Shown piece after piece: positions 15,907 through 32,438 of a stretch of DNA of 62,052 bases. Source of the stretch: Candidatus Woesearchaeota archaeon (GTDB lineage: Archaea > Nanobdellota > Nanobdellia > Pacearchaeales > GW2011-AR1); the NCBI GenBank assembly GCA_964372375.1, contig CAYJQF010000001.1:1-62052 (forward strand). The letters are read 5' to 3'. Below the pieces are notes generated by a model. That model was not told the DNA's origin. It saw only the letters and a list, made by a program, of their open reading frames with translations, and ran no database searches. Position 1 is the stretch's first letter; each line of letters begins with the position of its first letter. A program made the translations under genes and the position numbers.

Positions 15907-18576
15907 TTAGACTCCTGGTCTTTTAATAAATCTTCCGTCGCCCCCTTTTTGCTGCCTTTTTGCAATTTCTGCCTGAATTTTTTCTTGTTCTCTCTTCCTA
16001 AAGAGGGGAATTTCATACATTCCTGTCCGCTTTCCGTCAAGCTTATTGAAAGCATATATTATTTGTTCACTTCTCCATCCTGTTTCGCTCAGCTTTCTGC
16101 GTATTACAGCATCCGATAAGGTTGCAATTCTTGAATTATGTATAAACGTGATGCTATTATACAAATCATCTGGATTTTTGAATAAGTATGCTTCATAATG
16201 TTTCTTGTACCATTCTTGTAATACAATATATAACGTAAAAATAAGGATAAGTGCAAGGGAACTCCATAAAAGAATCCATTCAAGAGGCAAGCGAGGGTTA
16301 GTAGTTTCTTGCGTGCTGTATGTTCCTAGGACTGGAATGAGTGGAGAAAGGTACATCCCTAACTGCGTAATGTCTTGTTCTCCAGCAATGAAGAAGCTGA
16401 CACTGCTTTCATTCGTTAAAAGAGCAGTGCCAGACGAAGAGTCTCCCGCAAGTGCTCGTTGTCCATAGTTTTTCATAAAAGTAATCTCATCTGCAGGATA
16501 ATCAATGATGAAATATGCCTCGCTTGTATTTTGCGCCTGTTTGTTGAAAGTAACAGTAAAAAAAGTGAGTAAGGGAGTATCTTGACTAAGAGCATCTCTA
16601 AGGGTAATGACTTCGAAATCAATACGAGGAGCATAATTTTGCTGTATCCAGTAAATGATGTTCGACTTGAGTTCATCGCGTTTATTATTAGAAATATTGT
16701 ATTGAGAAAGTGCTTCTATATATGATATATCAATTCCTTCAAGGCCAAGTGCCAAAGGAAGGGTACCCTTTCGCTCGCTCGCTAATCCTTCAGGAATCCG
16801 TAACGCGAGCAAAGAGGTTATCAGTTCACTGTATTGAGCATCGCTTGCGTTGCTTGCAACAGTAAGAGTAGCAAGTTCGGCATGTAATTGAGAACTATTA
16901 ATATTCTGTTTGAGGAGCGGCTGTATCCAACGAGGGTAACTTTCAATTTGAAAGCTGAGATTAGCGACGCGCGTGTTTAAAAGTGCAAGCAGTCGCTCTG
17001 CTGACTCGCGTGCATTTCCAGCATAGAGTGTAAACTTTTGTGTGATACTTAAACCTCTATCACTAGTAAGCGTAACTTCTATCGTATAGTTGCTCGTGTT
17101 TGTATACGTATGGCTTACTATCTTTCCTTGTGTAACTAGTTGAGAGCCATCGCCAAACTTCCAGATAGCAGCGGTAATGTTTTCATTGGTTAGCGCAACA
17201 AATGTGGTTGGAGTGCCTAAGAACGCGAATCGCGGTGTAATCGTGAAATTAAATCCAGGGGAAATGGTTAATGCTAAAGAGGTGTTAAAAATACGTTTGC
17301 CTTGCAAATACAGGTCAAACTTTTTTTGTGAGGTAGTCAAAGGAATAGTAAACTGTGCTGGTGCAAGGTCTATAGTTACACGCGGTGCAGAAATACTTGC
17401 ATTGGTTACATAGATCTTGTTGAGCTTCCGGTAGGTTTTTACGTTGCCCGGAGTTGCTTCATATACAATCGACGCATTAGTAAAAGTGAGCGTCTGGTGG
17501 ATTCCGGTAAAAGTAAAGGGCAGTATGCAGCCACCAGTACAATTGCGTCCGTAGGTTTGTTCTATATAGTCATCAAGATAGGATCCGAAATCTTCATGTT
17601 CAATATTTTGATACGCTTGCTTGATACTTAAGTCGTGGAGAGTACTGTACGGCAACGGGCGGGTAAAGAGCTCATAGTCAAAAACGGCTTCCTGTGATCC
17701 GAGCAGATTTGCTGTTCCACAGATTGCTCCTGACTCTTCAGCGCGAATTTGATACGTTGCACTATTTGAACTTGAAGAGAGACAAACAAAGTAATTTCCT
17801 GAATGAGTCACGGATCGATTTACAACACAGCTTACTTCTTGCATTTCCTGTTGTAACAGCGGCAAGGTACAATCGCCTACATAGGCAGTTTCATTATCAT
17901 AGAGCTCCATTTTCAGGACGGCGAGGTTTGTGGTAGTATTTTTTACCAGTGCACCAAGTTCATATGCAGGCGCTGGTTCAAGATGAACGCGTTCACATAA
18001 ACCTTGTTCGGTTACTTTCAGGGAAGAATAGCTATTTTCTGGTAAGGAAGGACTGAAACAACCATAGTTTTTTGCTTTGGTGCAAAGGTAGCCAGCACTA
18101 AACTGTGTATTCTGAACGTAGGTCTTTCCTTGGTCAAGCAAATCAATGAGTAGTTGTCGAGTACAAGAAACACCGCTATCACTGTTAATGAGAAAATCAG
18201 CATCCTGAATGTATACTTCTCTTCCGGTGATATTGAAACCAATAAGCTGCGCATTATCGATGCTCGTGCTTGTGATTTCTCCTTCCCGCATCCCATAGGT
18301 ACGTTGGCAGCCAGGTACACTACAGGTATAATCACTCCCTTCTACAAGGTTATTGCGTTTCAAGAGTTCCAATAACGTTATAGAGCCATTAAAGGTGCTC
18401 GTGAGTACTGAAGAAGCGGGTTCATGGTTTAATTGTAACTCTAGAGAACCCTTGATACTGCTTCCTCCCCCATAATCACGATCTATATGCTCATCAAGAA
18501 AAGTAAATGTTGCAGCTACCTCAGGCAGTAAGAAAAGACAGCAAACTAAGAAACAGAGCACACTTGCTTTTTTCAT
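15907..18576 (-). CDS. large membrane-anchored surface protein with PKD-like domain
   Basis: Signal peptide MKKASVLCFLVCCLFLLPEVAA. PKD-like WKFGDGSQLVTQGKIVSHTYTNTSNYTIEVTLTSD (about 17020-17180). Many NxS/T sequons. C-terminal TM LLWSSLALILIFTLYIVL followed by a cytoplasmic tail. The TATA lies about 24 nt upstream. Confidence 0.75.
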   Translation of the reverse strand: MKKASVLCFLVCCLFLLPEVAATFTFLDEHIDRDYGGGSSIKGSLELQLNHEPASSVLTSTFNGSITLLELLKRNNLVEGSDYTCSVPGCQRTYGMREGEITSTSIDNAQLIGFNITGREVYIQDADFLINSDSGVSCTRQLLIDLLDQGKTYVQNTQFSAGYLCTKAKNYGCFSPSLPENSYSSLKVTEQGLCERVHLEPAPAYELGALVKNTTTNLAVLKMELYDNETAYVGDCTLPLLQQEMQEVSCVVNRSVTHSGNYFVCLSSSSNSATYQIRAEESGAICGTANLLGSQEAVFDYELFTRPLPYSTLHDLSIKQAYQNIEHEDFGSYLDDYIEQTYGRNCTGGCILPFTFTGIHQTLTFTNASIVYEATPGNVKTYRKLNKIYVTNASISAPRVTIDLAPAQFTIPLTTSQKKFDLYLQGKRIFNTSLALTISPGFNFTITPRFAFLGTPTTFVALTNENITAAIWKFGDGSQLVTQGKIVSHTYTNTSNYTIEVTLTSDRGLSITQKFTLYAGNARESAERLLALLNTRVANLSFQIESYPRWIQPLLKQNINSSQLHAELATLTVASNASDAQYSELITSLLALRIPEGLASERKGTLPLALGLEGIDISYIEALSQYNISNNKRDELKSNIIYWIQQNYAPRIDFEVITLRDALSQDTPLLTFFTVTFNKQAQNTSEAYFIIDYPADEITFMKNYGQRALAGDSSSGTALLTNESSVSFFIAGEQDITQLGMYLSPLIPVLGTYSTQETTNPRLPLEWILLWSSLALILIFTLYIVLQEWYKKHYEAYLFKNPDDLYNSITFIHNSRIATLSDAVIRRKLSETGWRSEQIIYAFNKLDGKRTGMYEIPLFRKREQEKIQAEIAKRQQKGGDGRFIKRPGV

Positions 18577-18614
18577 ACTTCCTTGAATAACCAGTTCTTT
18601 AAAAAGATACCGTA

Positions 18615-21600
18615 CTAGCTGGCACTGCTTCTCCGGGTAGCAAAGAAGTAAAACAAGGCAAGTATTCCTAGTGCTGCTATAAACTGTACTGAGCCAAAGA
18701 ACGGCAGTTCAAATGCAGGTCGCCCACAAGGTATGGGATACTCTCCAGGAGTGCAGCTGAAGCAGGCTAAAGAACCTTCAGGAGATGCATCTACATGAAC
18801 GCGATAATATCCATTCACACATGAACTGATATTGGTAGCATGTTCATAGCAGCTTCCCATACTAACGCCAGCACTCGTCTGGATAGTCGTGTTTAAGACA
18901 CATTGAGCGTCTTTCCAGGCGCAGCTTGCAACAACAATGCCAGCACTACAACTATTTTCCTGGGAACTTTGTTGGTATTGCCATAATCCGTACGCATCAC
19001 GCTCACACTCAGACTTTGTCCCATAGTTTTCACAGCGTATTGGTGCGTTGTCTGGCTTGGGCACACAACCAGAGGTTTCACTGCATACATAGTTTGCTGG
19101 ACAGCACTCATCACTGGTGCCCGCATTCCCATCTCTTCCTTTACAGGCATTGCTGTTATAGTTTTGTATCGAGCTTGAATAATTAGTAGTCCCCTGAATA
19201 GCGACGATACCTCCTTGGTTATTTATTACGGTGAAGTTATAGCCGCGATTGATACATTCTCCAAGAGTAAAGTTGCGGGTAAAGCTTCCCTGCAAGTTCA
19301 TACTTCCTGAAGTATAAGTAGCAACAACCTTGAAGGCTTTATCGAATAAAATGGAAGAATGTTCACTTCTGCTAAAAGTTCTGCTTCCTTGTACTTCGCC
19401 AAGACCAGAGAGAAAAGCAGGAAGTTCAGTTCCCTGATTGAACGTGCTCCAGGTAAAGTTGATAGCTGCAAAGCCAGGACTGGGATTTGCATTACTCACA
19501 CTGACATTATTGGAACAGCCAGGAGGCGCATTTGCCGTTTGTCCAGGACAAGTACCTGCAAGACAGGTAATGGTTCCCGAACAGCTTGCATTGTAACTGC
19601 TGTTAATAATATAAGTATCTTGAGCGCTGAAAGGCACGCTTACTGAGCTGAGGTTAGCAAGAGGAATGCTCTCATCTTGTTTAGGCTTATCAATAAATAC
19701 AGAGAGATCAGCATTCATACTTATAACAAGCAGCGCAATCTGTGCTTCTACTGATACACAACCAGGAATAGTTGCTTGTAAGGTAATCGTTTTCTGCCCA
19801 GAAGTAGCAAGGAGATACGTGAAGGTATCTTCATTTCGTATAATGGCATCTTCAGCAATGCTCCAGCGCACGCTGCTTCCTGAGGGGAGTGCAGTGTGTG
19901 CAAAGATAACGGAGGTATTTGCAAAGTAAATGCCTTTATGGACTGGCGAAGCAATACTCACTTCACAGCCGCTGCCAGCAATAACTCCCGCAGTTTTACT
20001 AGTAGTTAAAATACCAGAGCCAATTGCTTTGCCTGAGACGCTCGCGTTGAAATAAAATTCAAGATACTGATCGCTTGAACCGTAGTCTTCATCAAAGAAT
20101 CCCTGTCCAACGCCCGCAGCAATATCACTGTCAGTAATGGTCCAATTGGCACGCGCAATACCCTGCACATCAACTACTCCAGTCAAGTTTGCATTTCCTG
20201 TTCGTATAGGATCATCAACTGATGCATCTTTCTCCCAAATCTCAAAGGTGACTGCTGTACCTGGAGTAAAATTGGTTTCTGCATACAAAACAACTGAGGA
20301 ATACCTGCTTGCACTGCTTACAGAAAGTGCGGTAGTTCTATCGCGCCAACTTGCTCCATTGAATCCCAGAACTCTAAATCCCTGGGCAAGACAGCACACT
20401 TTTTGAGGGTAAGAATAAGAAGCAACAGCAAGATGCGCATTTGTCTGCGAGGAGAGAGTAAGAATCGCTTGTTCACCAGCGCTACAAGTGCTCTTGAGAG
20501 TGCAAGAAAGAACACCATAACACACCGTTATAGGGTAATGTGATAAAGTAGCATCTTCAGCATGCGCATTGCTTACTGATGAGAGTTTCACAATGCTATT
20601 GCTCCCCGTACACGTCCAAGGATTGTTGCTGCCAGTATAGTTACTTCCAAAAATCTTGTCATAACATATTGAATATTGTGCATTTACATCTTTATTAGTT
20701 ACATTAAAGACTGCCGTATGAGAATTATTTTGGCTGTATAAAGAAAGTATTGTTTGATTCTCTGCTGAGCACATGTTTGTTCCTGATTGTGAAACAGATT
20801 GTGCAATTGTATAATTGATGATGACTAGACCATTAGCTCCTGCAGCTCCACCGGTTGTAGTAGGAACTCCAAACTGACTAGACCTATGCATCCCACCTCC
20901 CCCTCCTCCTCCAGGAGCCTTACCCTGATTAGCAGGTGTTGGTACATTACTTATCGTGCAATCTAGACCATTACCGCCGTCCCCAACTCTTGAACCAACG
21001 AGGAATGTAAGCACTCCATTAGCAAAAATAGCTCCGCCTCCACTTACACCTCCCCCTCCTCCGCTATTCATACTACCATCACCGCCACGAATAGATGTAT
21101 AATTACCTCCAATTCCTCCAATTCCACATCCATCTGGACGTCCCGCACTCCAGAATCCATATCCTCCAATTCCCGCCCATCCTCCAGGGATAGACCTCTG
21201 AACCGCATTACTTGTTCCTCCATTTCCAGCAAAAGCACCACCTATTTGATAGCTTCCTTCTCCCCCTCCCCCACCGCCAGTTGCATTAAGTGCCACACCA
21301 TTTCCTGAAAATGTAGTTGTTCCTCCATTCAATCCTTTCGAGGCACCAACACTTCCTCCATTACCTCCACTACCCACCACGATAGTATAAGTAGTGCCCG
21401 GTAGTACATTTATTGTTTGGAGACCATAGCCTCCTCCCCCACCTCCTCCCCCACCACTAGTAAAGAAATCTCGAATACCTGGTTCCACATAATATTTTGC
21501 AGCACCAGGACCGCCACCTCCTCCCCCACCCCAAAGTTCAACACTAATTGAGTAAACATTAGCAGGAACAGTCCACGTAGATGGATTAAAAGAGCTATCA

Positions 21601-21686
21601 AAAACAACTTGCTCAGCGCGCGCATATCCAAGAAAAAGGATAAAAAAAATTATTGAGAATACTACCAGGAAATGAAATCGCCTCAT
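18615..21686 (-). CDS. giant surface protein with N-terminal glycine-rich domain, Cys-rich repeats and C-terminal TM anchor
   Basis: The start is moved to MRRFHFLVVFSIIFFILFLGYARA (ATG 21686), which lies 26 nt after TTTATAAATA. It carries TVPANVYSISVELWGGGGGGGPG..GGGGGGGGGYG and several further poly-G blocks (about 20830-21560). There are three C..ILxLSSxxNAH repeats (about 20400-20780). The C-terminal anchor is FIAALGILALFYFFATRR. Confidence 0.8.
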   Translation of the reverse strand: MRRFHFLVVFSIIFFILFLGYARAEQVVFDSSFNPSTWTVPANVYSISVELWGGGGGGGPGAAKYYVEPGIRDFFTSGGGGGGGGGYGLQTINVLPGTTYTIVVGSGGNGGSVGASKGLNGGTTTFSGNGVALNATGGGGGGEGSYQIGGAFAGNGGTSNAVQRSIPGGWAGIGGYGFWSAGRPDGCGIGGIGGNYTSIRGGDGSMNSGGGGGVSGGGAIFANGVLTFLVGSRVGDGGNGLDCTISNVPTPANQGKAPGGGGGGGMHRSSQFGVPTTTGGAAGANGLVIINYTIAQSVSQSGTNMCSAENQTILSLYSQNNSHTAVFNVTNKDVNAQYSICYDKIFGSNYTGSNNPWTCTGSNSIVKLSSVSNAHAEDATLSHYPITVCYGVLSCTLKSTCSAGEQAILTLSSQTNAHLAVASYSYPQKVCCLAQGFRVLGFNGASWRDRTTALSVSSASRYSSVVLYAETNFTPGTAVTFEIWEKDASVDDPIRTGNANLTGVVDVQGIARANWTITDSDIAAGVGQGFFDEDYGSSDQYLEFYFNASVSGKAIGSGILTTSKTAGVIAGSGCEVSIASPVHKGIYFANTSVIFAHTALPSGSSVRWSIAEDAIIRNEDTFTYLLATSGQKTITLQATIPGCVSVEAQIALLVISMNADLSVFIDKPKQDESIPLANLSSVSVPFSAQDTYIINSSYNASCSGTITCLAGTCPGQTANAPPGCSNNVSVSNANPSPGFAAINFTWSTFNQGTELPAFLSGLGEVQGSRTFSRSEHSSILFDKAFKVVATYTSGSMNLQGSFTRNFTLGECINRGYNFTVINNQGGIVAIQGTTNYSSSIQNYNSNACKGRDGNAGTSDECCPANYVCSETSGCVPKPDNAPIRCENYGTKSECERDAYGLWQYQQSSQENSCSAGIVVASCAWKDAQCVLNTTIQTSAGVSMGSCYEHATNISSCVNGYYRVHVDASPEGSLACFSCTPGEYPIPCGRPAFELPFFGSVQFIAALGILALFYFFATRRSSAS

Positions 21687-21707
21687 AGCTCCTGAAGCTT
21701 CTTTCTC

Positions 21708-21717
21708 TTTATAAATA
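21708..21717 (-). promoter_or_regulatory. TATA-like box for the glycine-rich protein gene
   Basis: TATTTATAAA on the minus strand is centred 26 nt upstream of ATG 21686. It lies at the upstream edge of the 31-nt spacer before ATG 21686, abutting the stop codon of the preceding pilin-like gene (21718-21720). Confidence 0.5.
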
Positions 21718-22140
21718 TTATCGGGCTTGCGCACGGAACAAGAACACCTTTACCCGCTGAGGATTGATCGTTTCCTGAGCAGGAAGGGCACTAATAAGGC
21801 GCTCACCGGCGCAAATATCAAGGTTATCAAGCCCGCTTTCATTCAAAGCACAGCCAATCTCATCTACAGGGCCGCAAACACTAACCCTCGATGCGATACC
21901 TGGATTGGCAATCCGTGCATCAACAAATATCTTAATCACGGTGGTCTGATGAGAGAGGGCGTTTTCACGCAATGAATTATTCTTTGCAATCTCATCTAAC
22001 AAACCAGGAATGAGCGAGCAGAGACTATTTATAGGCGATTCTGCTTGACGGTATGAAAGTACAACTAATACTGCTCCAATAATGATGAGAATAGACACCA
22101 GCGCTTCAACGATTCTAAGCCATCCTTGTTTATTTACCAT
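21718..22140 (-). CDS. pilin-like protein (class III signal peptide)
   Basis: MVNKQGWLRIVEALVSILIIIGAVLVVLSY has a basic leader, Gly, then a hydrophobic helix with Glu near +6. It overlaps the upstream gene by 7 nt. Confidence 0.55.
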   Translation of the reverse strand: MVNKQGWLRIVEALVSILIIIGAVLVVLSYRQAESPINSLCSLIPGLLDEIAKNNSLRENALSHQTTVIKIFVDARIANPGIASRVSVCGPVDEIGCALNESGLDNLDICAGERLISALPAQETINPQRVKVFLFRAQAR

Positions 22141-22874
22141 ATTTTTACCTCTACATCGCCAAAGACAAACCGCCCATCTGTTCTAAGAATTTCAACTCGT
22201 TTTGTCTTTGCATACACGGTGGTTTTGAGAAGCAGAGGCTTTTCCATGAGTATCCTGTCTCCTTCTGAGAAACTGACAGCGATACCGAGCTCATAGCCGG
22301 CGCCAAGACCAAGGGCTGCTTTTGTCTGTTCGTACTCTTTCGTATAGGTAGTATTCAGAGCAAGCAGCCGCTGCTCTGAAAGTAACGTTATGTTTGTCTT
22401 TGAGGCAAGAGCATACAAGTGCTCTTGAACCTGCCCCTTTGAATGTACGGTCCCATATGCAGTACGTAAGTCAGGACTGACTCTCACAAATACCAGTTTC
22501 TCATTTCCTTGGCGCTCAAAGTAGATGATATCGTGCTCCAGGGACGAAGGTAATATCGCTCCCGTATAGTTGACTACTTGGACACCAACGCCTGCAAAGG
22601 TTCGAGAAAGATTAACTGCAAGAAAGGTAGTGCTCTCTGGTGCGCTTAGGGCAAGGCTATACTGCTCTACTCCAACACTGGTATTTCTACTAAGTTGTTC
22701 TAGTAGGTATGGAGTGAAGCTTGGGTCCTCAGAAGTATGTTTTGTAGTAAAAAAGTATAAAGCGAAAAGCACTGCCCCTATGAAGAGGACGGAAGCAAGG
22801 ATTATTTCTACATGACTCATTCCTCTTTGGTACATACACATGCCACTCTCGAATCTTTTATATACTTTCTGCAT
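22134..22874 (-). CDS. pilin-like protein (class III signal peptide, Glu+5)
   Basis: ..MYQRG/MSHVEIILASVLFIGAVLFALYFF has Glu at +5 after the putative cleavage Gly. The true start may be the internal ATG at 22841 or 22835. Confidence 0.55.
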   Translation of the reverse strand: MQKVYKRFESGMCMYQRGMSHVEIILASVLFIGAVLFALYFFTTKHTSEDPSFTPYLLEQLSRNTSVGVEQYSLALSAPESTTFLAVNLSRTFAGVGVQVVNYTGAILPSSLEHDIIYFERQGNEKLVFVRVSPDLRTAYGTVHSKGQVQEHLYALASKTNITLLSEQRLLALNTTYTKEYEQTKAALGLGAGYELGIAVSFSEGDRILMEKPLLLKTTVYAKTKRVEILRTDGRFVFGDVEVKIW

Positions 22875-22912
22875 GCAAACAGCTTTTTATAATCGTCTTT
22901 GTTCAATACTAA

Positions 22913-23689
22913 GTGACGCTCTTACAGGAATTGACTACGTTGCTGAAGCAGAAGCGAGAACTTCAGGATATTGCAGAGAGCGTAGTGCAAACAACACTTG
23001 AAGAGCAGTTACGAAAAAACAAGCTCTCGACAACAGCGAATCTAACTGCCAAGGAGAAAAAAATACTGGTAAAGGAAGCGCGCGCAGTACTGAGACAGTC
23101 AGCTGGCCAGTATCATGCTCCCTTATCAAAAGCAGCAACTGTACCGGAATTGCTCAAAAGCCACACCTCTACAAGGGAGAGACAGGCACTATATCCCTTG
23201 CTTAAGCGGAAAATACACGAGCTTAAGGTTACTTCTGTTCTTGACCTTGGCTGTGGGTTGAATCCTCTTGCATTAGCGGAGCCCTCTGTGAGATATTATG
23301 CAGCAGATATTCGCCAGGATGATCTTGCACGAGTGGATGCTTTCTTCAAGAAACACAATATCAAAGGCAAAGCATTTGTGTATGATGCTAAAAGGATAGA
23401 TACTTCATTGCCACCTGTTGATCTTTGTCTTTTGATGCAACTAGTCGACGTTCTGGAAAAGCGAGGACACAAACTTGCAGAAAAGATTCTCACTACGGTA
23501 TCTGCCCGTTATTTTTGTATTAGTTTTGCAACAAAAACGATTTCAGGGAGACCTATGAATCATCCGCAGCGAGGGTGGATTGAGCGCCTCTTACTCCGTC
23601 TCGGGTATCCCTTTGAATGCATAAAGACCAAAAAGGAGATTTTCTACTTTGCTGAGAAGCCTAAAGTAATTTCACCCCAGTCGCGATGA
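22913..23689 (+). CDS. Arm/Rmt (FmrO)-family 16S rRNA methyltransferase homolog
   Basis: 258 aa with SHTSTRERQ, VLDLGCGLNPLAL (SAM motif I), QLVDVLEKR and ISFATKTISGR. By eye these align with the conserved blocks of RmtB/ArmA-type m7G1405 methyltransferases. The GTG start lies about 24 nt after TTTTTATAA. Confidence 0.65.
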   Translation: MTLLQELTTLLKQKRELQDIAESVVQTTLEEQLRKNKLSTTANLTAKEKKILVKEARAVLRQSAGQYHAPLSKAATVPELLKSHTSTRERQALYPLLKRKIHELKVTSVLDLGCGLNPLALAEPSVRYYAADIRQDDLARVDAFFKKHNIKGKAFVYDAKRIDTSLPPVDLCLLMQLVDVLEKRGHKLAEKILTTVSARYFCISFATKTISGRPMNHPQRGWIERLLLRLGYPFECIKTKKEIFYFAEKPKVISPQSR

Positions 23690-24518
23690 GATATGCCGAT
23701 ACCACAAGGAAGAATGAATGTTTAATGCCTGCTTTAAGTGATCCTTCAGTGAGTTTTCCAATTGCAAAACCAGTAAAGAATCCCTGTGCCATGAGCAGAT
23801 ATAAAAAAAGATTAGTAAGCTCATCTACTGTAAAAACAGGGGTATTTGTGCTTACTGCTTCAAGGGCTGATGCGCTTGCTCCAACTCCTTTAAAGGAAGT
23901 AATCTGGACCGCAAGCGGCAGAATTTTAAACTCCATAACAAGCATAATGCCAATAAAAATAAAGAAGATAATGTATCCCTGTACAACTAAATTCGATATT
24001 GCTGCTTTGCGTTCTTTCTTCAGCTTTTCAACTTCGGAAATAGACTTGGCAACTGAATCAAGAATGTAGTCAATCTCTCCACCTGCTCGCTCAGCTTCGC
24101 TAATAAGTCCTACCGCTCGGGTGATTACTGGATTGTCAACATCTCGGGCAAAGTTCTGAAGCGCCTGATTTACTGGAATTCCCAGAGCTATTTGATTCGC
24201 TAACTTACTAACTGAGGGGCTCAGCGGTCCATAATTCTTCTTGCTAATGTTTACTATACTCTTGCTAATGGGTGTCCCGGTAATAACGCTTTCTGCGAGA
24301 TTCCTAGAAAATTCAAGAAACAGAGCATTAATTTCTTCTTCACGCTTGCTTTCACTCACAAGGCTTACGATAAAAGGCAATGCGATAACAACTATTCCTA
24401 TGCCTGCTATAAAGTAGAAAAGGTTCTTCTGCTCCTGTACAAAAAAGAAGATACTTCCAATTACTATAAGAACAATACCAGCAACAATGCCTATCCAATG
24501 TGTCTTTTTAAGTTTCAT
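23661..24518 (-). CDS. type IV pilus platform protein, single T2SSF domain (FlaJ/TadC-like)
   Basis: 285 aa. N-terminal TMs, then a T2SSF-like cytoplasmic domain (LFLEFSRNLAESVITGTPISKSI..GIPVNQALQNFARDV), then C-terminal TMs. Confidence 0.8.
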   Translation of the reverse strand: MKLKKTHWIGIVAGIVLIVIGSIFFFVQEQKNLFYFIAGIGIVVIALPFIVSLVSESKREEEINALFLEFSRNLAESVITGTPISKSIVNISKKNYGPLSPSVSKLANQIALGIPVNQALQNFARDVDNPVITRAVGLISEAERAGGEIDYILDSVAKSISEVEKLKKERKAAISNLVVQGYIIFFIFIGIMLVMEFKILPLAVQITSFKGVGASASALEAVSTNTPVFTVDELTNLFLYLLMAQGFFTGFAIGKLTEGSLKAGIKHSFFLVVSAYLIATGVKLL

Positions 24519-25795
24519 TAGTATGAAGGTTGTTTTATATGGAGAATAGTAAGAAAGATAAGATTGATAATGGCAATGAGCGCAATAATAGCCGCAGTCA
24601 TGCTCGCAGGAGTGATACCTACATTAAAGTCGCCAATAGAAAGCAGGATAAAGAGTAAGAGGAGGATCATGGGCGCAGCAATTACTACCGTAATATAAAT
24701 ATCCATAAAGGTCTCTGCAATCTTAGTGAATTGCTCTCGCTCCAACCGGTAGCTGACGAGTAACGTCTCAGCACGCTTTTCAAAGAAACTTTGAAGGCTG
24801 CCTCCTGAAGTGATAGTTGTTGAGAGGCCAAGAAAGAGCTCAGCCAGCTTCGGGCTTGATGAATTCTGTGCCGCATTGTTGAGTGCAGTTACTAAGTCAT
24901 AACCATAGAGATTAATTTGGTTGAGAAGCTTTCTGATCTCTTTTCGTAAAAACGGATATTCAGTGCTTAAAACAATAATTTTAAAGATATTTGTCGGCTC
25001 AAGGCCCGCTCCAGAAATTGCATTCATATGAATAACTGCAAAAGGTAATTCACGATCAATTCTCTTTGCAAGCGATCCAATTTCTGTTGAAGGGTAGGCA
25101 TATAAAATAAGATAAGAAGCAAGCGCAAAAAAAGGAGGAATCCAAATGCTCCAGGCAATTTTTAGTAGAATACTTCCTTGGATCAAGAAGAAAACACCTA
25201 AGGCAAGTATAGTTCCTGCAATCAAACCGATAAACGAAGTGAAAAACATGAGTGAAATATAGCTTTCAGGCAGGATAGAAAGGTTTGCTTTTCGTAAGTC
25301 AGTGCGCAATTTAGCAAAATGTCCTGCTTGTAACAGGCGCTGTGCAGGCGAAAAGAAGAAACGATTTGAGAGTTTGACATATCCACGCGAGTGCTGAAAC
25401 GAGTCTTCCATTTCTTTTATTTTTCCATAGTGTTGTTTCTTGATAGCAGCGAGCGCTTTCTCACTAATCTGGAGCTCATGTAGGAACTTTTCTTTGTCTT
25501 TTGCATGCACAGTAACACTCATACTCTCCCCTGATGGCTTGGAAAAGGAGAAGCGTTCAAGTGAAGTGCGTCGTTCTTGCTGTTTTCCCGGAAGCCGCTG
25601 TGAGATGCTTATTCCAGCGACCAGCGCAGGAACAGAAGCATTTAAGAGTTTCATCTGCGCTTGTAGGGCAAGCAGCGCCTCACGAAGCATCTTCTCTTCG
25701 GTAGGTGTTGCTAAAGCAAGGCGCTGGCTATAGCTTGCAATTTCACGCAACATGCTAACTTCACTGTCTACGTTTTTAGTTAGCTCTTGTATCAT
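24518..25795 (-). CDS. type IV pilus platform protein, single T2SSF domain (FlaJ/TadB-like)
   Basis: 425 aa with a T2SSF-like region ELPFAVIHMNAISGAGLEPTNIFKII..GYDLVTALNNAA flanked by TMs. Its stop shares 1 nt with the next start. Confidence 0.8.
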   Translation of the reverse strand: MIQELTKNVDSEVSMLREIASYSQRLALATPTEEKMLREALLALQAQMKLLNASVPALVAGISISQRLPGKQQERRTSLERFSFSKPSGESMSVTVHAKDKEKFLHELQISEKALAAIKKQHYGKIKEMEDSFQHSRGYVKLSNRFFFSPAQRLLQAGHFAKLRTDLRKANLSILPESYISLMFFTSFIGLIAGTILALGVFFLIQGSILLKIAWSIWIPPFFALASYLILYAYPSTEIGSLAKRIDRELPFAVIHMNAISGAGLEPTNIFKIIVLSTEYPFLRKEIRKLLNQINLYGYDLVTALNNAAQNSSSPKLAELFLGLSTTITSGGSLQSFFEKRAETLLVSYRLEREQFTKIAETFMDIYITVVIAAPMILLLLFILLSIGDFNVGITPASMTAAIIALIAIINLIFLTILHIKQPSY

Positions 25796-25953
25796 ACTAG
25801 CTCGTTGATTTGCATGTGCAAATGCAGAATTTCCTTTTTAGCGAGGGCAACTTGTTCACTATCTTTATGTTTAACTGCCGTATCTAGTTTCTGTACCACT
25901 TCTTTCATGGTAGCAAGAAGATGGGCAAGTGCAGTTACCGCCTCTTTGTCCAT
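25792..25953 (-). CDS. 53-aa helical miniprotein coupled to the platform gene
   Basis: MDKEAVTALAHLLATMKEVVQKLDTAVKHKDSEQVALAKKEILHLHMQINELV, verified codon by codon. Its TGA overlaps the ATG of the 425-aa gene (ATGA). It is below the ORF-track cutoff. Confidence 0.45.
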   Translation of the reverse strand: MDKEAVTALAHLLATMKEVVQKLDTAVKHKDSEQVALAKKEILHLHMQINELV

Positions 25954-25989
25954 AGCGGGAAAAACAGAGCCTTGTTTAAATATCTTTCA

Positions 25990-27513
25990 TTACTCGCTAA
26001 TATCGAATCTATTCAGTACCGCGATAGGATTCTTATGGTATTCATTAATAATATTGCCCACTTCGTGGAAACCGAAAATGCCTCGCTTGAACAGTTCATA
26101 CAGGAGTTTAGAGCGAGTGGCGAACTCTTTTTGGAGTTGTTCAAGCGAGAGACCTTGTCGCGTTGCTATTTTTTCGAAGACTTTACTCTGTTTCTTAAAG
26201 TAAAAGTTGTCGGTTGAAGGATTCCAGATTAAAGGCGTATTAATTAAAGCAGTGCCATCTTTGTTTACATTTATAATTTCTACAACTTCACGGACGCGCC
26301 TTGTCTCATGCTGTTGAATAGTGGCATGGGTCGCAATAACAACACAGTCTAATGAATTGACAAGACTTGGCGAGAGCTCAATGGGCGGTGTCTGCAGTCT
26401 TCGGATGAGCGTATCAACCGAGTCTGCATGCATCGTGCTGAGAGAAGGGTGTCCAGAAGCCATTCCCTGGAAAAGCACAAATGCCTCTTTGCCTCGTACT
26501 TCTCCCACAATCAAATAGTCAGGCATTTGTCTGAACGAGCTTTTAAGAAGGGCGAATAAATCGACTTCACCAACTTTTCCGATTCCAATAGACGGGCGGG
26601 CTACTGCCGGGAGCCAGTTTTCTCTAGGCAGGTTAATTTCTCTGGTATCTTCAATGCTCACCACTCTCGCTTCAGGAGGGATAAAAAAAGCAAGCGCATT
26701 TAAGAGAGTGGTTTTGCCTGAGCCCGTTCCTCCCGAGATAAGGATATTTGACTTATACTGAATCAGGATCCAAAAGTAAGCAAGCATTTCTGGGCTGAGG
26801 GTATTAAAGGCGATAAGCTGTGTCGGAGTCCAAGGAGTCTTAGTAAATTTACGTATGGTGAACGTGGGTCCATTTGAGGTTACATCTTTAGTATAAGAAG
26901 CATTGACTCTGCTCCCGTCAGGCAGGCTTCCATCAAGCAAGGGCTGCGCATAAGAGATATAGCGGCCAGTGCGCTGTGCGAGTTTCTCAACAAAGCTTGC
27001 GAGCACATCAATATCTTTGAACAGTAAGTTAGTCCTCATATTTCTGTACGTGCGATGGATGATATACAAGGGAGTCTCTATACCATTACACTCAATATCT
27101 TCGATGAAATAGTCGCGCATAAGCGGATCAATGGAGCTTAAACCGATAAAATCGCGAAAGAGATAGTAAAAAAGTTTATTGTAGGTCTCATCAGAAAGGG
27201 CCATATTCAGCTCTTCAATAAGCAGCCGCGCTGTTTTATCGATGTAGGTTGTCGTAGCTTCTAATGTTCTGTCAACGGCCACATTAACATTAATGAGTTC
27301 GAACATTGCCTGTTCAAGTCTCTCTAAAACAACGCGCTCATCATCGCTTAGCATAGGCTCCTCTATGTCATATACTAACTCATTTGCTTGTGTATCCCAA
27401 TAAATATGAGCAGAAGCATACGGGGGAATGAGCATATAGCGCACATCAACTTTTGTTTTATCGTCAATCTTAGGGAGCACCGGTATAGTGGGATTGAGAT
27501 TAAGTGCTTGCAT
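25990..27513 (-). CDS. FlaI/PilB-type (type II/IV secretion family) assembly ATPase
   Basis: 507 aa. Archaeal FlaI-like N-terminus (YMLIPPYASAHIYWD..LVYDIEEP), Walker A SGGTGSGKTTLLNAL, Asp/His boxes. TATA TTTTATATA lies 23 nt upstream. Confidence 0.9.
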   Translation of the reverse strand: MQALNLNPTIPVLPKIDDKTKVDVRYMLIPPYASAHIYWDTQANELVYDIEEPMLSDDERVVLERLEQAMFELINVNVAVDRTLEATTTYIDKTARLLIEELNMALSDETYNKLFYYLFRDFIGLSSIDPLMRDYFIEDIECNGIETPLYIIHRTYRNMRTNLLFKDIDVLASFVEKLAQRTGRYISYAQPLLDGSLPDGSRVNASYTKDVTSNGPTFTIRKFTKTPWTPTQLIAFNTLSPEMLAYFWILIQYKSNILISGGTGSGKTTLLNALAFFIPPEARVVSIEDTREINLPRENWLPAVARPSIGIGKVGEVDLFALLKSSFRQMPDYLIVGEVRGKEAFVLFQGMASGHPSLSTMHADSVDTLIRRLQTPPIELSPSLVNSLDCVVIATHATIQQHETRRVREVVEIINVNKDGTALINTPLIWNPSTDNFYFKKQSKVFEKIATRQGLSLEQLQKEFATRSKLLYELFKRGIFGFHEVGNIINEYHKNPIAVLNRFDISE

Positions 27514-27559
27514 AGGGTAAAAACTCCTCTGAGCTATATAAAACTATCTCGAATTCTAT

Positions 27560-28096
27560 TTAAGAACCAATTCGTATATCTATTACTGGAAGATTTCCAT
27601 TTGCACCTTGATTGCTTACAAAGAAGTGATAGGGAGTAGGCGTCTGAGAGAGTTTCTGTACCGTATCCTTACCCATAGAGGTAATGTTCGCATAGTCTTT
27701 GTATGAAATACTTAAAGCAACTCCCGGTCCGGTGGTATCAGTAAATGAGAGTATCTCAACTCTCCCGTCTGTAACAGGATAGCCGGGCTCCGAGTAGTTC
27801 TCTTGTAAACCGGTGATTTTAAATCGTATTCTATCTTCTGTTCCATTAATGTATAGTTCACCGCGCTTAAAGGCGAGGTCATATGAACGGATATTATCAG
27901 GTCCTAGTTCGACTACTGAAGTGATTGTCTGATCGAGCACTTTAAGTGCACTAATACTCTGCTGAATTAATGCCTGTTCCTGCGCATTGGTAATCTTAGG
28001 GAGGGCATATCCTAAAACTAAGCCGATCAGTGCTAATCCCATTAAAGTATACAGTACTGTTTCTATCCATATTTGTGCTGTTTTATTTAAGTACAT
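27560..28096 (-). CDS. pilin-like protein (class III signal peptide, Glu+5)
   Basis: MYLNKTA/QIWIETVLYTLMGLALIGLVLGY. Confidence 0.6.
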   Translation of the reverse strand: MYLNKTAQIWIETVLYTLMGLALIGLVLGYALPKITNAQEQALIQQSISALKVLDQTITSVVELGPDNIRSYDLAFKRGELYINGTEDRIRFKITGLQENYSEPGYPVTDGRVEILSFTDTTGPGVALSISYKDYANITSMGKDTVQKLSQTPTPYHFFVSNQGANGNLPVIDIRIGS

Positions 28097-28599
28097 AGTG
28101 AGAGGGTATGTGTATCTGTGCGTTGGTCGCAGATTCTTTCAGCTGGTCCCGAAGCAATGATTGTGTATACATCAACGCTTGAATACAGTTCGGGAGAAGT
28201 ATAGGTATACGTGCGTGTTTCTCCTGGTTCAGGAAGGTGAACAACAGGTTGGGAGCTGTTGAACGGAGCTAGTTTTCCGGAGCTGGTATTTTCATGTACT
28301 GCAAAAGTAGTCGAATTTCCCGAGCTTTTAAAGACCAGCTGAAATCCTTTTACCTTCCCTGCACCCTCATTGTTATTTGTTTGTATTGATAAAATATAGA
28401 GCCCTGAAGGAGTGCGGCAGTTATAGGAGAAACGATCATCAAAGCTAAAATGCGTTTGGTACGGGGTACATTCAGTGCTTCTTTGCAAACTAGTCTTTAC
28501 AAAAGGTATAAGTATCTGTGCAACGATACTTGCAGCAACCAAGGTAAGTAAAATGAGCGCAATTGTCGCAACGGCGGTAGAGACCCCTTTTTTGTTCAT
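28087..28599 (-). CDS. archaeal type IV pilin (pilin N-terminal motif)
   Basis: MNKKG/VSTAVATIALILLTLVAASIVAQIL. Confidence 0.7.
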   Translation of the reverse strand: MNKKGVSTAVATIALILLTLVAASIVAQILIPFVKTSLQRSTECTPYQTHFSFDDRFSYNCRTPSGLYILSIQTNNNEGAGKVKGFQLVFKSSGNSTTFAVHENTSSGKLAPFNSSQPVVHLPEPGETRTYTYTSPELYSSVDVYTIIASGPAERICDQRTDTHTLSLCT

Positions 28600-28601
28600 G
28601 A

Positions 28602-29057
28602 TTACATTTCAACCGTGATTGTTTTGCTCATTCCATCACAAAAATACTGTTTACTCTCGCTTCCAATGCTTCCTAAAATAATAGGCGTAACAATGATCTC
28701 TTCACTAGTCTGTATACTAGTGCCAATAAGAGAGATGCTTCCTGTTTCACCATTTCGGATCGTAGAGCCTTCAGAACCGCCAACAGTTTCAACTTTTTCG
28801 ATAGTGCCTGAACTTTTCTTTTTAATCTCGAAGCTGTAGAGAGGTACATTGCCGCGGTTGACAATGTGTACTTCAGCACCGTATGCTTCCGCTTCGAACT
28901 GAATACTTCCACACGAATTTTCAGCAGGTTCACCTTCTTTTTGTGCTTTTTCTATGAGAAAACTTCGTGCCCAAAGAAAGATGATAGATGCAAGGATAAG
29001 CGCCAAAACAATGAGGAGAACGGTTGCAATTACTGGTGAGAGGCCCTTTCGCTCCAT
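28602..29057 (-). CDS. archaeal type IV pilin (pilin N-terminal motif)
   Basis: The start is moved to MERKG/LSPVIATVLLIVLALILASIIF (ATG 29057), 26 nt after the TATA. The ORF-track start at 29159 would overlap the VKOR gene. Confidence 0.75.
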   Translation of the reverse strand: MERKGLSPVIATVLLIVLALILASIIFLWARSFLIEKAQKEGEPAENSCGSIQFEAEAYGAEVHIVNRGNVPLYSFEIKKKSSGTIEKVETVGGSEGSTIRNGETGSISLIGTSIQTSEEIIVTPIILGSIGSESKQYFCDGMSKTITVEM

Positions 29058-29076
29058 TCTGCTCAGAACACTTACT

Positions 29077-29088
29077 CCTTTAAAAATC
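29077..29088 (-). promoter_or_regulatory. TATA-like box for the three-gene pilin operon
   Basis: GATTTTTAAAGG on the minus strand is centred 26 nt upstream of ATG 29057. Confidence 0.5.
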
Positions 29089-29098
29089 TTCGTAGCTT

Positions 29099-29485
29099 TC
29101 AGATCATCTTCCAGGAAAAAAAGAACAGAAGGAGGTTTATGATGTAGATGCAAGTGCATATGATGCAGAAATTGCGTAGACGGACATACGAAATATATCC
29201 AAGATAGAAAGAGAATAACACACCAAGCGAGCTGAGGAGAAATACTGCGCGATATGCCTCTGTTTGTATCAGATAGATAAGAACAAGATAAGCCACAATA
29301 CCAATAAGAGGATTTGGAAATCCAAAGAGACGGCCATACGGGCTTAAGAAGGCCTTACTACATGAAACGAGTTCTGAAATATCACAAAGCGGCGTATATT
29401 CTTTATTTTTTAACCGCAGCTCAACAATCAATGCATATAAAGAGAGAAATACCCCTAAAATTGTCAGCAGCAAGAGTATACTCAT
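29099..29485 (-). CDS. vitamin K epoxide reductase (VKOR) family membrane oxidoreductase
   Basis: 128 aa, 4 TM. The loop Cys pair is CDISELVSC and the CxxC (CIIC) sits in the last TM. Confidence 0.75.
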   Translation of the reverse strand: MSILLLLTILGVFLSLYALIVELRLKNKEYTPLCDISELVSCSKAFLSPYGRLFGFPNPLIGIVAYLVLIYLIQTEAYRAVFLLSSLGVLFSFYLGYISYVRLRNFCIICTCIYIINLLLFFFSWKMI

Positions 29486-29486
29486 G

Positions 29487-30455
29487 TTAGGTAGGTACGA
29501 TCTTTTGTTTGGTTAGGTATTCATACGCTGAGTACGCGGCAGTACATCCTTCTGCAACGCCCGTTATTGCCTGCTTGAATGGCTTGTCAGCTACATCACC
29601 TGAAGCAAATACTCCTGGAACATTAGTTTCCGAGGTCTTATGATTTAGTACAATTTCTTTCTTTTCGTTTACTTGCACTCCTAGACCTTGAGCAACTTCT
29701 GAGAGCACCAGATGTCCGATAGCAACAAAAACACCTTGTACAACAAGCTCCTTGTTTCCCTGGTATGCTCGATCAAGCAGTACACTGGTAACTACCTGAT
29801 TGCCTTTGACTGCAATGACATTTGTCTTGTTAATAACTTCAATCTTTTTTTGCGCTTGTACTCGTTTCAGATTAATAGGCTCAGGATGAATCTGCTCTCC
29901 CCTATAAATAAAATATACTTTCTTTGCATGTTCTGCCAGTACAAGCGCGTCTTTTGCCGCAGAGTCAGAACCTCCTACAATGCAAACAACTTTATTCTTG
30001 AAGAGAGGAGCATCGCAAAGTGCACAGTAAGCTACTCCTTTGTTCTCAAACTCTTTTGAACCAGGAACATCTAAAGTCTTCCATTTGGTTCCTGTTGCAA
30101 ACAATATCGTCTTTGCAAGATACCTGCTGTTATGCGTATCAACTTCAAACAGGGTTTCTTTTTTTCGCACATGTTCAACTTTCTCTTCTTTAATAGTAAC
30201 TAAATCGTACGATTCTGCATGCGTGCGTATTGCTTCCGCAAGTTCGGTGCCGGTCACCCTGATAAATCCAGGATAGTTTTCAACCACATTTGTTGTGGTA
30301 ATAACACCGCCAATAGGCAACTCGGCGCTTGACATGACTCCTAAACAAAGCGTCTTCATTCCCAATCGAGCACCATACATAGCAGCAGCCAAACCGCTCA
30401 CCCCTGCGCCTATGATGAGAAAGTCATATGCATTTTTATTTGATTCTTTAGGCAT
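29487..30455 (-). CDS. trxB: thioredoxin reductase-like flavoprotein
   Basis: FAD motif IIGAGVSGLAAA. The redox CxxC is YCALCDAPLF (canonical CATC/CAVC). NADPH motif IVGGSDSA and C-terminal GDV. Confidence 0.88.
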   Translation of the reverse strand: MPKESNKNAYDFLIIGAGVSGLAAAMYGARLGMKTLCLGVMSSAELPIGGVITTTNVVENYPGFIRVTGTELAEAIRTHAESYDLVTIKEEKVEHVRKKETLFEVDTHNSRYLAKTILFATGTKWKTLDVPGSKEFENKGVAYCALCDAPLFKNKVVCIVGGSDSAAKDALVLAEHAKKVYFIYRGEQIHPEPINLKRVQAQKKIEVINKTNVIAVKGNQVVTSVLLDRAYQGNKELVVQGVFVAIGHLVLSEVAQGLGVQVNEKKEIVLNHKTSETNVPGVFASGDVADKPFKQAITGVAEGCTAAYSAYEYLTKQKIVPT

Positions 30456-31005: not shown

Positions 31006-31735
31006 AAAAATCGCTTTTATTTTTGCCCTGCTTATGACGGGACTCATTGCAAATACAGTATATCTCTTCTCTCAGAGTCAGGAACAAACAAAGCAAGAGA
31101 TTCTAGTAGCGAGAGTAATAGACGGCGATACCCTCGTGGACGCTGAAGGAAGGATTATTCGTCTTGCTAATATCAATGCCCCCGAGAAGGGGACTCCAGC
31201 AGCAGCATACGCAAAAGAGTTTCTCAGTGCATATACTAATAAAACCATAGGCTTGGAAATTCTAGGCACTGAGAAGTATGGCAGATTGCTTGGTAAACTC
31301 TATGCTGAAAGGTATATCAATCTTGAGATTGTTGAGAAAGGATTTGCTTCAAAATTCTTAGTTGCTGATGCGGAAAAGAAAGTTTTTGCAGACGCTGAAG
31401 AAGAAGCAATCTCCACTGAGCAGGGCATATGGAAGCAATCCTCTCACGCTTCTTGCCTTGCACTCCTTGTTGATTCCAAGAAAGAGCAGGCAGTACTCAC
31501 CAATACGTGTGAGGCAATTAACCTTACTGGTTGGATACTGAAAGATGAGAGTAGAAAACAATATAAGTTTCATACACTTCTCAAACATGAGCTCACCATA
31601 GAGAGCACATCAGGAAATGATAATGAAACGCAGGTCTTCTGGAATGCAGGAAATGTCTGGAATGATGATAGAGATACAGCCTATCTCTTTGATGCCGACA
31701 ACAGGCTTGCAGCGCACTATAGGTATGGTTATTAA
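30998..31735 (+). CDS. membrane-anchored thermonuclease (SNase) fused to a lamin-tail domain
   Basis: A TTG start at 30998 follows AAAGGAG. It has an N-terminal TM and an SNase pattern, ARVIDGDTLVD..IRLANINAPEKG..EKYGRLLGKLY..EIVEKGFA. The C-terminal LTD-like segment reads INLTGWILKDESRKQYKF. Confidence 0.8.
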   Translation: MRKKIAFIFALLMTGLIANTVYLFSQSQEQTKQEILVARVIDGDTLVDAEGRIIRLANINAPEKGTPAAAYAKEFLSAYTNKTIGLEILGTEKYGRLLGKLYAERYINLEIVEKGFASKFLVADAEKKVFADAEEEAISTEQGIWKQSSHASCLALLVDSKKEQAVLTNTCEAINLTGWILKDESRKQYKFHTLLKHELTIESTSGNDNETQVFWNAGNVWNDDRDTAYLFDADNRLAAHYRYGY

Positions 31736-32438
31736 TCTGCTTGCTTGTATTTTCTTGCTTATCCCCCTTACCCACGCTTTCGAGATTACCGAAGTTGAGC
31801 TCAATCCATTAGGAAATGATGCCGGTGCAGAATGGATAGAGCTGTATGCCAATCAGGAAACAGCACTCAATGATCTTACCTTTGAGAATGGAGATAATGA
31901 AACATACCAAGTGAACGGAAGTTTTAACGGATATCATGTCCTTCAGTTTGCAAAGCAATGGCTTGATAATACGAACGAGACAATCAAAGTTAAACGAGGG
32001 TCTTTACTTTTGACCAGTGTAGGTCCATTTAAAGATGACAAGAACTCCTTGCTTTCGTGGAGTATTTGTAATGATGTCTGGAAATTCAGTGCTGCAACAA
32101 AAGGGGCAGCAAACACCTGTGAACCGCCTACTCAGCAAACTTCTTCAATATCAGAAAACAACAATAAAACGCCGGTACTTGCAAGTAAACAAGAGAACAA
32201 GAAAAGCGGAGCAAACAAAAGCAGGGACGAACGTATAAATTCATCAGAGCATGCTCTCTCTGCTGGAAAAGAAGAAAACTCACAGGAAAACACAGTTATT
32301 AGGCTTACCAATCATGCAACGCAGACACCAATCACATTCACTTCAAAAGAAGGGAACATACGGCTTTGGATTTCTTACACTTTTACTTTTCTTTGTATCG
32401 GTATTATCTTTTTCCTTCTGAGTACACGGAATCTTTAA
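31725..32438 (+). CDS. lamin-tail-domain surface protein with C-terminal TM
   Basis: The start is moved to MVINLLACIFLLIPLTHA (signal peptide). LTD pattern ITEVELNPLGNDAGAEWIELYAN, then a polar low-complexity linker and TM WISYTFTFLCIGIIFFLL. It overlaps the nuclease gene by 11 nt. Confidence 0.65.
   Translation: MVINLLACIFLLIPLTHAFEITEVELNPLGNDAGAEWIELYANQETALNDLTFENGDNETYQVNGSFNGYHVLQFAKQWLDNTNETIKVKRGSLLLTSVGPFKDDKNSLLSWSICNDVWKFSAATKGAANTCEPPTQQTSSISENNNKTPVLASKQENKKSGANKSRDERINSSEHALSAGKEENSQENTVIRLTNHATQTPITFTSKEGNIRLWISYTFTFLCIGIIFFLLSTRNL

Follow-up and report, generated by a model that had tools for sequence, protein, structure and literature searches.

A glycine-headed, membrane-anchored candidate adhesin encoded beside a type IV pilus locus in a woesearchaeal archaeon

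Gene structure, promoter and domain architecture

The window analysed here is the whole stretch of 62,052 nucleotides (nt) at positions 1-62,052 of contig CAYJQF010000001.1 (GCA_964372375.1, forward strand) from Candidatus Woesearchaeota archaeon, a tiny, probably symbiotic DPANN archaeon. On the minus strand, between a type IV pilus locus and a gene for a second large membrane protein, it carries a gene for a protein of 1023 amino acids (aa) that consists, from the N to the C terminus, of a signal peptide, a glycine-rich head, three repeats with an NAH motif (hereafter the NAH module), a beta-sandwich stalk, a Cys-rich base and a transmembrane helix. This protein is interpreted below, with moderate confidence, as a surface adhesin with an exchangeable head. 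The features of the gene are as follows (positions are those of the window):

18615-21686, minus strand: coding sequence of the surface protein, 1023 aa, with the stop codon at 18615-18617
21707-21714, minus strand: TATA box TTTATAAA (with the following G, TTTATAAAG), an 8-mer at -29 to -22 from the ATG
21615-21686, minus strand: Sec-type signal peptide, aa 1-24 (MRR, a hydrophobic core and ARA/E), as read from the sequence
20811-21581, minus strand: Gly_rich_2 head, aa 36-292, with beta-sandwich strands and 13 glycine-rich segments
20376-20771, minus strand: NAH module, aa 306-437, with three homologous repeats at aa 306-358, 359-400 and 401-437
19137-20363, minus strand: stalk of tandem immunoglobulin (Ig)/PKD-like beta-sandwiches, aa 442-850, from AlphaFold2 (AF2), Foldseek and the family profile
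19716-19964, minus strand: PKD-like domain within the stalk, aa ~575-657, where family profile positions ~255-375 match PKD
18723-19145, minus strand: Cys-rich membrane-proximal domain, aa 848-988, with 14 Cys, nearly all family-invariant
18693-18728, minus strand: juxtamembrane signature CGRPAFELPFFG, aa 987-998, family consensus PCGRxxxEL[PGS]FF[GDS]
18618-18692, minus strand: C-terminal transmembrane helix, aa 999-1017, with the basic tail RRSSAS (AF2 helix aa 999-1021; hydropathy)
21430-21455, plus strand: perfect 12-nt x 2.2 tandem repeat (CCTCCTCCCCCA) encoding the run of nine glycines

The start codon ATG 21686 was favoured because of the N-termini of the orthologs and the position of the promoter. 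A public annotation (P0002, 1039 aa) places the start at GTG 21734, which makes the gene run into its upstream neighbour and puts the TATA box within the open reading frame (ORF); this start is therefore unlikely, and the call is probably 16 codons too long. The 9-mer TTTATAAAG spans -29 to -21 relative to ATG 21686 and sits in a 31-nt spacer, directly past the TAA stop codon (21720-21718) of the upstream pilin-like gene. It recurs with the same 20-nt gap to the ATG upstream of the orthologues in the related loci L001, L002, L003, L004 and L006, and because 9-mer and spacing are identical in these five loci despite differing flanks it was taken as a conserved archaeal TATA box. An earlier note, made from the sequence of the window, had assigned the gene a TATA box of its own, and the fixed spacing in orthologous loci agrees with this; the note had also embedded the box in the previous gene, and this part has to be corrected to the spacer after its stop codon. 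The transcript is probably leaderless or near-leaderless.

The signal peptide (MRRFHFLVVFSIIFFILFLGYARA followed by EQ), which the earlier note had also recognized, is helical over aa 3-18 in the AF2 model; it contains no cleavage site of the class III (pilin) kind, and Pfam gave no Pilin_N match. The protein has 32 cysteines, at positions invariant in the family, and 22 N-x-S/T sequons, where by our rough estimate about 12 would be expected from composition.

The beta-rich, Cys-rich and C-terminally membrane-anchored layout described in the earlier note was borne out by AF2 and by the sequence. In the AF2 model of the full protein, aa 442-985 form tandem beta-sandwiches and a Cys-rich beta domain with a predicted local distance difference test (pLDDT) score mostly above 90; for the Cys-rich domain on its own terms the model is beta-rich with pLDDT ~65-90, except for a short segment (aa 905-912) below 50. 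A Foldseek search with the full model returned only generic multi-Ig/MG chains (C3, PorU, GhpA, SbsB, PrgB) at a template modelling score (TM-score) of at most 0.2. The profile of the family to which the stalk belongs matched the PKD domains of ColH/ColG (E-values 1e-16 to 1e-9) and also Hoc and the Methanosarcina surface-layer protein 1L0Q; the Pfam model PKD_4 was found in 24 of 48 family members and was sub-threshold in the window protein alone. Motifs of the stalk, in their consensus forms, are HRGIYF, GQKTITL, CLAGxCP and RxFTLGQC, and the conserved cysteines of the base are C848, C861, C862, C868, C874, C885, C894, C922, C929, C946, C956, C978 and C987.

The signature CGRPAFELPFFG with the transmembrane helix and the RRSSAS tail looks like a sorting signal. 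A known CTERM sorting signal was considered for its ELPFFG motif and rejected, as neither the whole protein nor ten family C-termini gave an NCBIfam match at E-values up to 10. Within the ~190 kb made up of the window and seven related loci, ELPFFG was confined to the surface-protein family. Two other C-terminally anchored proteins of the window, an LTD protein (31617-32438) and a 397-aa protein (32945-34138), lack the motif, so that it does not serve as a general signal for anchoring in this part of the genome.

The glycine-rich head and the NAH module

The region of aa 25-300 is 31% glycine and holds the 13 glycine-rich segments. Runs of at least five glycines number exactly five, with lengths of 7, 9, 6, 5 and 7 at aa 53-59, 78-86, 137-142, 209-213 and 259-265, so that the "five or more" blocks of 5-9 glycines of the earlier note are present as five; the segment TVPANVYSISVELWGGGGGGGPG occupies aa 39-61. 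The profile search for glycine-rich families that the note had proposed identified the head as Pfam PF21722 (Gly_rich_2; E-value 9.5e-17, 62.2 bits against a cut-off of 24.3 bits, profile positions 6-225 of 226), and tail families of PHROG matched it as well (phrog_863 at an E-value of 2e-15). The head was examined for the framing motifs of the family, WTVPxGV..I.VxxWGGGGGG at the start and GxVxIxY at the end with multiple GGxGG between, and the framing strands are present as STWTVPANVYSISVELWGGGGGGG at its start and NGLVIINYT at its end, with pLDDT mostly 65-83 in the AF2 model of the full protein. Pfam matches of the protein to DarA_C and aBig_2 fell below the cut-off.

A single-sequence search of the PDB gave nothing relevant. 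A word-based search for deepening the head alignment yielded only 5 matches, because glycine words swamp such a search. A profile built from 16 heads matched, in the PDB, the Bxb1 gp33 "tail wing brush" (9D93, E-value 6.6e-8), residues 2-201 of RemZ from Flavobacterium (8GL8, 1.5e-7) and the Pam3 gp24 fibre (7YFW/7YPX, 7e-6 and 9e-6). Together with PF21722 and the PHROG tail families these matches uphold the resemblance to glycine-rich domains of phage and bacterial fibres that the earlier note had pointed out. Because a catalogued family with solved structures is matched, the glycine domain is not novel by the note's own yardstick. By homology, the head would fold as a TNF-like beta-sandwich with a polyglycine-II lattice.

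The three Cys-framed C..LSSxxNAH motifs of the earlier note begin at aa 306, 359 and 401 and proved to be homologous repeats (mutual hhalign probability 94-97%, E-values 5e-10 to 3e-8) with the consensus C-x5-[IV][LV]xLSxxTNAH-x8-12-Y-x3-[IV]C[YC]. Since they are kept in more than 100 homologues, the motifs are not due to chance. Across 51-103 homologues of the module N321, N373, H375, C395 and C432 are invariant, and H323, N416, H418, C341 and F346 are conserved at 90% or more. AF2 modelled the module alone (51 sequences) with a pLDDT of 93.3 and a predicted TM-score of 0.87. The model had no match in the PDB by Foldseek (best E-value 1.9, TM-score at most 0.24), a profile of the module had none among PDB sequences, and no Pfam family was consistently matched among 51 members. 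An identity as a beta-trefoil lectin was considered and rejected, as the model did not superpose on beta-trefoil folds. A literature search for PF21722 or the TNAH repeat found nothing. As far as the literature, Pfam and PDB searches went, the NAH module is an undescribed domain, and judged from the model it is possibly a new fold.

On the DNA the earlier note had described the glycine runs as C/T-only tracts. With 14 nt as the minimum length, tracts of C and T only were found on the plus strand at 20896-20912, 21049-21062 and 21253-21272 (14-20 nt long), in agreement with the first two positions it had named; the third, at 21430-21455, contains A's and is instead the 12-nt tandem, which is the only plausible slippage substrate. 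Length variation was checked in assembler contigs of four metagenomes that carry the gene at 99% identity or more. No indel was seen in the gene, glycine tracts included, in the contigs of these four metagenomes, at a resolution that rare variants could escape. A minor contig of 243 nt has five single-nucleotide differences in NAH repeat 1, among them L314F and T324A, which give residues like those of orthologs. In run X1 the 27x assembly breaks at 21522-21551, inside the first glycine run, and upstream of 21619, in the region of the signal peptide, two variant contigs of low depth (2.3-2.6x) diverge, a hint of a minor strain whose N-terminus differs.

Family range, head exchange and genomic context

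Residues ~300-1023 define a large family without a Pfam model. HMMER retrieved 1582 proteins at E-values up to 1e-3 and 162 at up to 1e-30 from 1.84 billion representatives; most members have ~700-800 aa and open directly with the NAH module, so that the basic form of the family is ~750 aa long. All named members are annotated as "hypothetical protein" and come from metagenome-assembled genomes (MAGs) of Pacearchaeota or Nanoarchaeota, and the loci in GTDB species genomes (11 of 11) likewise belong to Pacearchaeota, Woesearchaeota or Nanoarchaeota MAGs, two of these genomes having two copies. Paralogues within one genome are P0003 and P0007 (on one contig), L012 and L018, and L011 and L015. 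The NAH repeats with the stalk are thus the conserved core of a lineage-wide DPANN family, which the earlier note had missed, as it had the fact that the glycine head is one of several interchangeable heads on this core.

More than 120 aa precede the family region in about a third of the representatives (54 of 156). A Pfam search of 48 headed members gave Gly_rich_2 (10), Laminin_G_3 (5), DUF4215 (4) and NHL (3), and F5/8 type C, Glug, pentaxin and DUF5648 as further heads; most head families are ligand-binding folds. Between P0003 and P0004 the identity is 96% in the NAH module, 73% in the stalk and 36% in the head. The same pattern was seen in the DNA of their loci, L001 and L002, which are 94-95% identical over 9 kb upstream, fall to 35-47% (the random level, with many gaps) across the ~800-nt head (L001 10083-11014), and jump to 100% and 96% within the NAH module. 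The sharp mosaic boundary points to a cassette replacement or an extreme diversification confined to the head. In Nanoarchaeota populations, hypothetical surface proteins and pilus genes were reported to diversify fastest (PMC6142677). A second variable patch of L001 against L002 (L001 12551-12831, 56-59% identity) lies in the Cys-rich membrane-proximal region.

The neighbouring features of the window are the following:

21718-29159, minus strand: upstream type IV pilus locus with an ATPase, two T2SSF platform genes and pilin-like genes
22913-23689, plus strand: FmrO-like methyltransferase gene inside the pilus locus
15907-18576, minus strand: downstream partner gene, 889 aa, with a signal peptide, PKD (Pfam E-value 3e-11), a transmembrane helix and a cytoplasmic tail of ~100 aa

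The ortholog occupies this position in six other loci, from at least five genomes. The upstream order in the window and in L001-L007 is pilus ATPase, a 53-aa ORF, two T2SSF genes (with FmrO on the opposite strand), two pilin-like genes and the family gene. The pilus locus directly precedes the family gene in L001-L003, and a few inserted genes intervene in L004 and L006. Next after the family gene come a PKD membrane protein of ~875-905 aa and then a GTPase, OapB, OapC and the CCA enzyme, an arrangement that among the relatives was seen in L004-L007 only; L001 and L002 have other large surface-protein genes past the family gene, at which the contig of L003 stops. Between family gene and PKD gene there is an overlap of 20 nt in L004 and of 4 nt in L006. 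A Gly_rich_2 head is present on the syntenic orthologue in the window, L001 and L002, and no head in L003-L007.

No homology was found between the 889-aa PKD protein and the 1023-aa protein. In the region upstream of its gene (18577-18614) there is a TATA-like CTTTTTAAAG 20 nt before the ATG, the same spacing as in the 1023-aa gene. The inserts between pilins and family gene (L004 5513-9336; L006 2469-9895) encode archease, RtcB, a PDDEXK nuclease and a LAGLIDADG endonuclease, and that of L006 also a 1855-aa protein without a Pfam domain; the junction of pilin and family genes is a variable slot. Downstream, L001 (13534-23129) and L002 (13409-23012) carry genes for a protein of ~1750 aa (discoidin, Laminin_G, PKD), one of 420 aa and another paralogue of the family (1312-1336 aa), in which a long helical stretch rich in Ala and a DUF4215-like, Cys-rich N-terminal part take the place of the NAH module; these genes form a surface-protein island. 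A VKOR and a TrxR-like gene belong to the cluster in the window (29099-30455, one operon). L001 (730-1962) and L002 have a 77-aa glutaredoxin before the TrxR-like gene, and VKOR does not occur at that position; glutaredoxin and VKOR may be alternative disulfide supplies for the Cys-rich surface proteins.

Proposed function and relation to known systems

We propose, with the moderate confidence stated above, that the 1023-aa protein is an adhesin. It would be a type I surface protein, exported by Sec, rich in disulfides and probably N-glycosylated, held in the membrane by its single C-terminal transmembrane helix, with the Cys-rich base, a rigid Ig/PKD-like stalk, the three-repeat NAH module and the distal head layered outward. 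Base, stalk and NAH module would make up a vertically inherited, lineage-specific scaffold and the head an exchangeable ligand-binding cassette, a variable tip held tens of nanometres off the cell that could bind a ligand on a host or partner cell or particle. The adhesin would probably act with the co-transcribed PKD membrane protein of ~890 aa and with the type IV pilus encoded nearby. The analysis shows the domain architecture, the family to which the head belongs, the synteny, the conserved promoter, the diversity of heads and the replacement of the head between close relatives; what we infer is display at the surface, the polyglycine-II fold of this head, ligand binding and a role in host attachment, and a recognition adhesin is most likely because the head is a module of phage receptor-binding tips with variable tips. 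A wider version, which we put forward tentatively and as the less probable one, sees a lineage-wide, pilus-linked host-recognition system in which the NAH module would be a platform of new fold with three N-x-H sites (for metal or glycan binding or for docking), and heads (phage-type glycine lattice, ConA-like lectin, NHL propeller, discoidin and others) swapped by recombination between strains, much as receptor-binding cassettes are exchanged among phages, would set partner or host specificity.

Several results weigh against the adhesin interpretation. The AF2 model has a pLDDT below 50 over aa 136-278, the alignment being shallow over the head, and since the glycine loops were not modelled it is homology only that speaks for the lattice. 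The gene was absent from the RNA runs searched, and the codon adaptation index relative to ribosomal-protein genes was flat (0.71-0.79 for all genes) and uninformative on expression. Head exchange was seen in the relatives L001 and L002, while the window's own population looks near-clonal across the four metagenomes. A conserved, syntenic gene with its own promoter, Ig-like domains and an anchor would also fit an S-layer-like envelope protein. In that case the protein would be the main structural S-layer-type envelope component, alone or with its PKD partner, and the head would decorate the lattice, e.g., for virus evasion. This explanation draws on the vertical inheritance of a core gene whose locus is fixed and whose strong consensus TATA box is kept in other loci, on its pairing with another large surface protein, comparable to S-layers of two components, and on SbsB, SbsC and 1L0Q among the Foldseek and profile matches; the combination of signal peptide, 22 sequons, Ig/PKD-like array and C-terminal anchor with a conserved pre-membrane motif is similar in outline to the Haloferax S-layer glycoprotein. 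It is nevertheless less likely, as there are several paralogues with the same stalk per genome, the structural matches concern only generic Ig/PKD domains (TM-score at most 0.2), and ligand-binding heads are swapped between close strains, which is typical of adhesins and receptor-binding proteins and less so of lattice subunits. An S-layer-type role is not fully exclusive of an adhesin.

If the protein belonged to the adjacent type IV pilus as a component or cargo, for example as its tip adhesin or as a pilus-associated anchor, this would account for the position of the gene on the same strand straight after the pilin-like genes in the window and three relatives, with a few genes between in two more. 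We consider this improbable, as the signal peptide is of the Sec type and not of class III, a C-terminal transmembrane anchor is incompatible with incorporation into the pilus fibre, the gene has its own promoter, and genes for archease, RtcB and LAGLIDADG lie between it and the pilins in L004 and L006. Even less credible is a contingency gene whose GGN tracts slip in replication and make it phase- or length-variable, the possibility of slippage raised in the earlier note. The pyrimidine tracts of 14-20 nt and the perfect tandem within the glycine runs would suit such a gene, as would the break of the X1 graph with its two low-depth variant contigs. Against this, the glycine codons are mixed (GGT/GGG/GGA/GGC), so that neither a long homopolymer nor a pure array of one trinucleotide results; the contigs of the four metagenomes span the tracts with 0 gaps; pyrimidine/purine tracts of at least 14 nt are common, with 29 in the window; and because the tracts are in-frame multiples of 3, slippage by whole units would not switch the gene off. 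The proposed length variation was accordingly not borne out. The best matches of the head, to PHROG tail families and phage structures, might finally suggest a tail-fibre gene of an integrated virus, which we regard as extremely unlikely: the neighbours are cellular housekeeping and pilus genes with synteny conserved across genomes, capsid, terminase or integrase genes are absent nearby, and apart from its head the protein belongs to a cellular family that is specific to DPANN and has a transmembrane anchor.

To our knowledge no Pacearchaeota or Woesearchaeota have been cultured, and the locus is a concrete candidate for partner recognition by ultrasmall archaea. Typing of the heads could predict or track host specificity in metagenomes, and the NAH module, with a confident model and no solved structural relative, is a good target for structure determination.

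The closest known relatives of the head are Pam3 gp24 and Bxb1 gp33, with which it shares a start of the form W-T-V-P-x-x-V...V-E-L-W-G-G-G-G-G-G, about 12-13 glycine-rich segments and the end G-x-V-x-I-x-Y. The Pam3 domain is a TNF-like sandwich with six loops (12 glycine-rich motifs) stacked as a four-layer lattice, its variable distal tips were proposed to bind the host receptor, and it resembles ALK (7LIR) and S16 gp38 (PMC9608196); gp33 and 7YFW are listed among polyproline-II (PPII) helix bundles (PMC13243192). Unlike these trimeric virion fibres with a chaperone, the head described here is N-terminal on a monomeric-looking, membrane-anchored archaeal protein, and its lattice is predicted by homology. 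RemZ of Flavobacterium johnsoniae (8GL8 chain D), a protein that is homologous to the gliding adhesin RemA and whose glycine-rich part is not resolved in the structure, likewise has a long beta-rich body followed by a C-terminal surface-attachment signal, but it is a substrate of the type IX secretion system with a C-terminal domain signal, in contrast to Sec export and a transmembrane anchor, and the bodies are unrelated. ALK/LTK (7LIR, 7N00, 7NX1) and S16 gp38 (6F45) combine a TNF-like fold with polyglycine-II helices and bind ligands or receptors (PMC9608196, PMC13243192); they have no sequence-level match to the head and are related to it at second hand, via Pam3.

As a whole protein, the closest parallels are the Haloferax S-layer glycoprotein (PGF-CTERM) and the Methanosarcina protein 1L0Q, which share the signal peptide, sequons, a beta-sandwich/PKD array, a pre-membrane motif and a basic tail. 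The protein of the window differs from them in that ELPFFG lies outside the curated sorting models and in its paralogues and exchangeable heads. Set beside these systems, the glycine domain is one more context, archaeal and membrane-anchored, for a large known family, and what is new, as far as searched, is the scaffold family, the NAH module and the swapping of heads at a fixed, pilus-linked locus.

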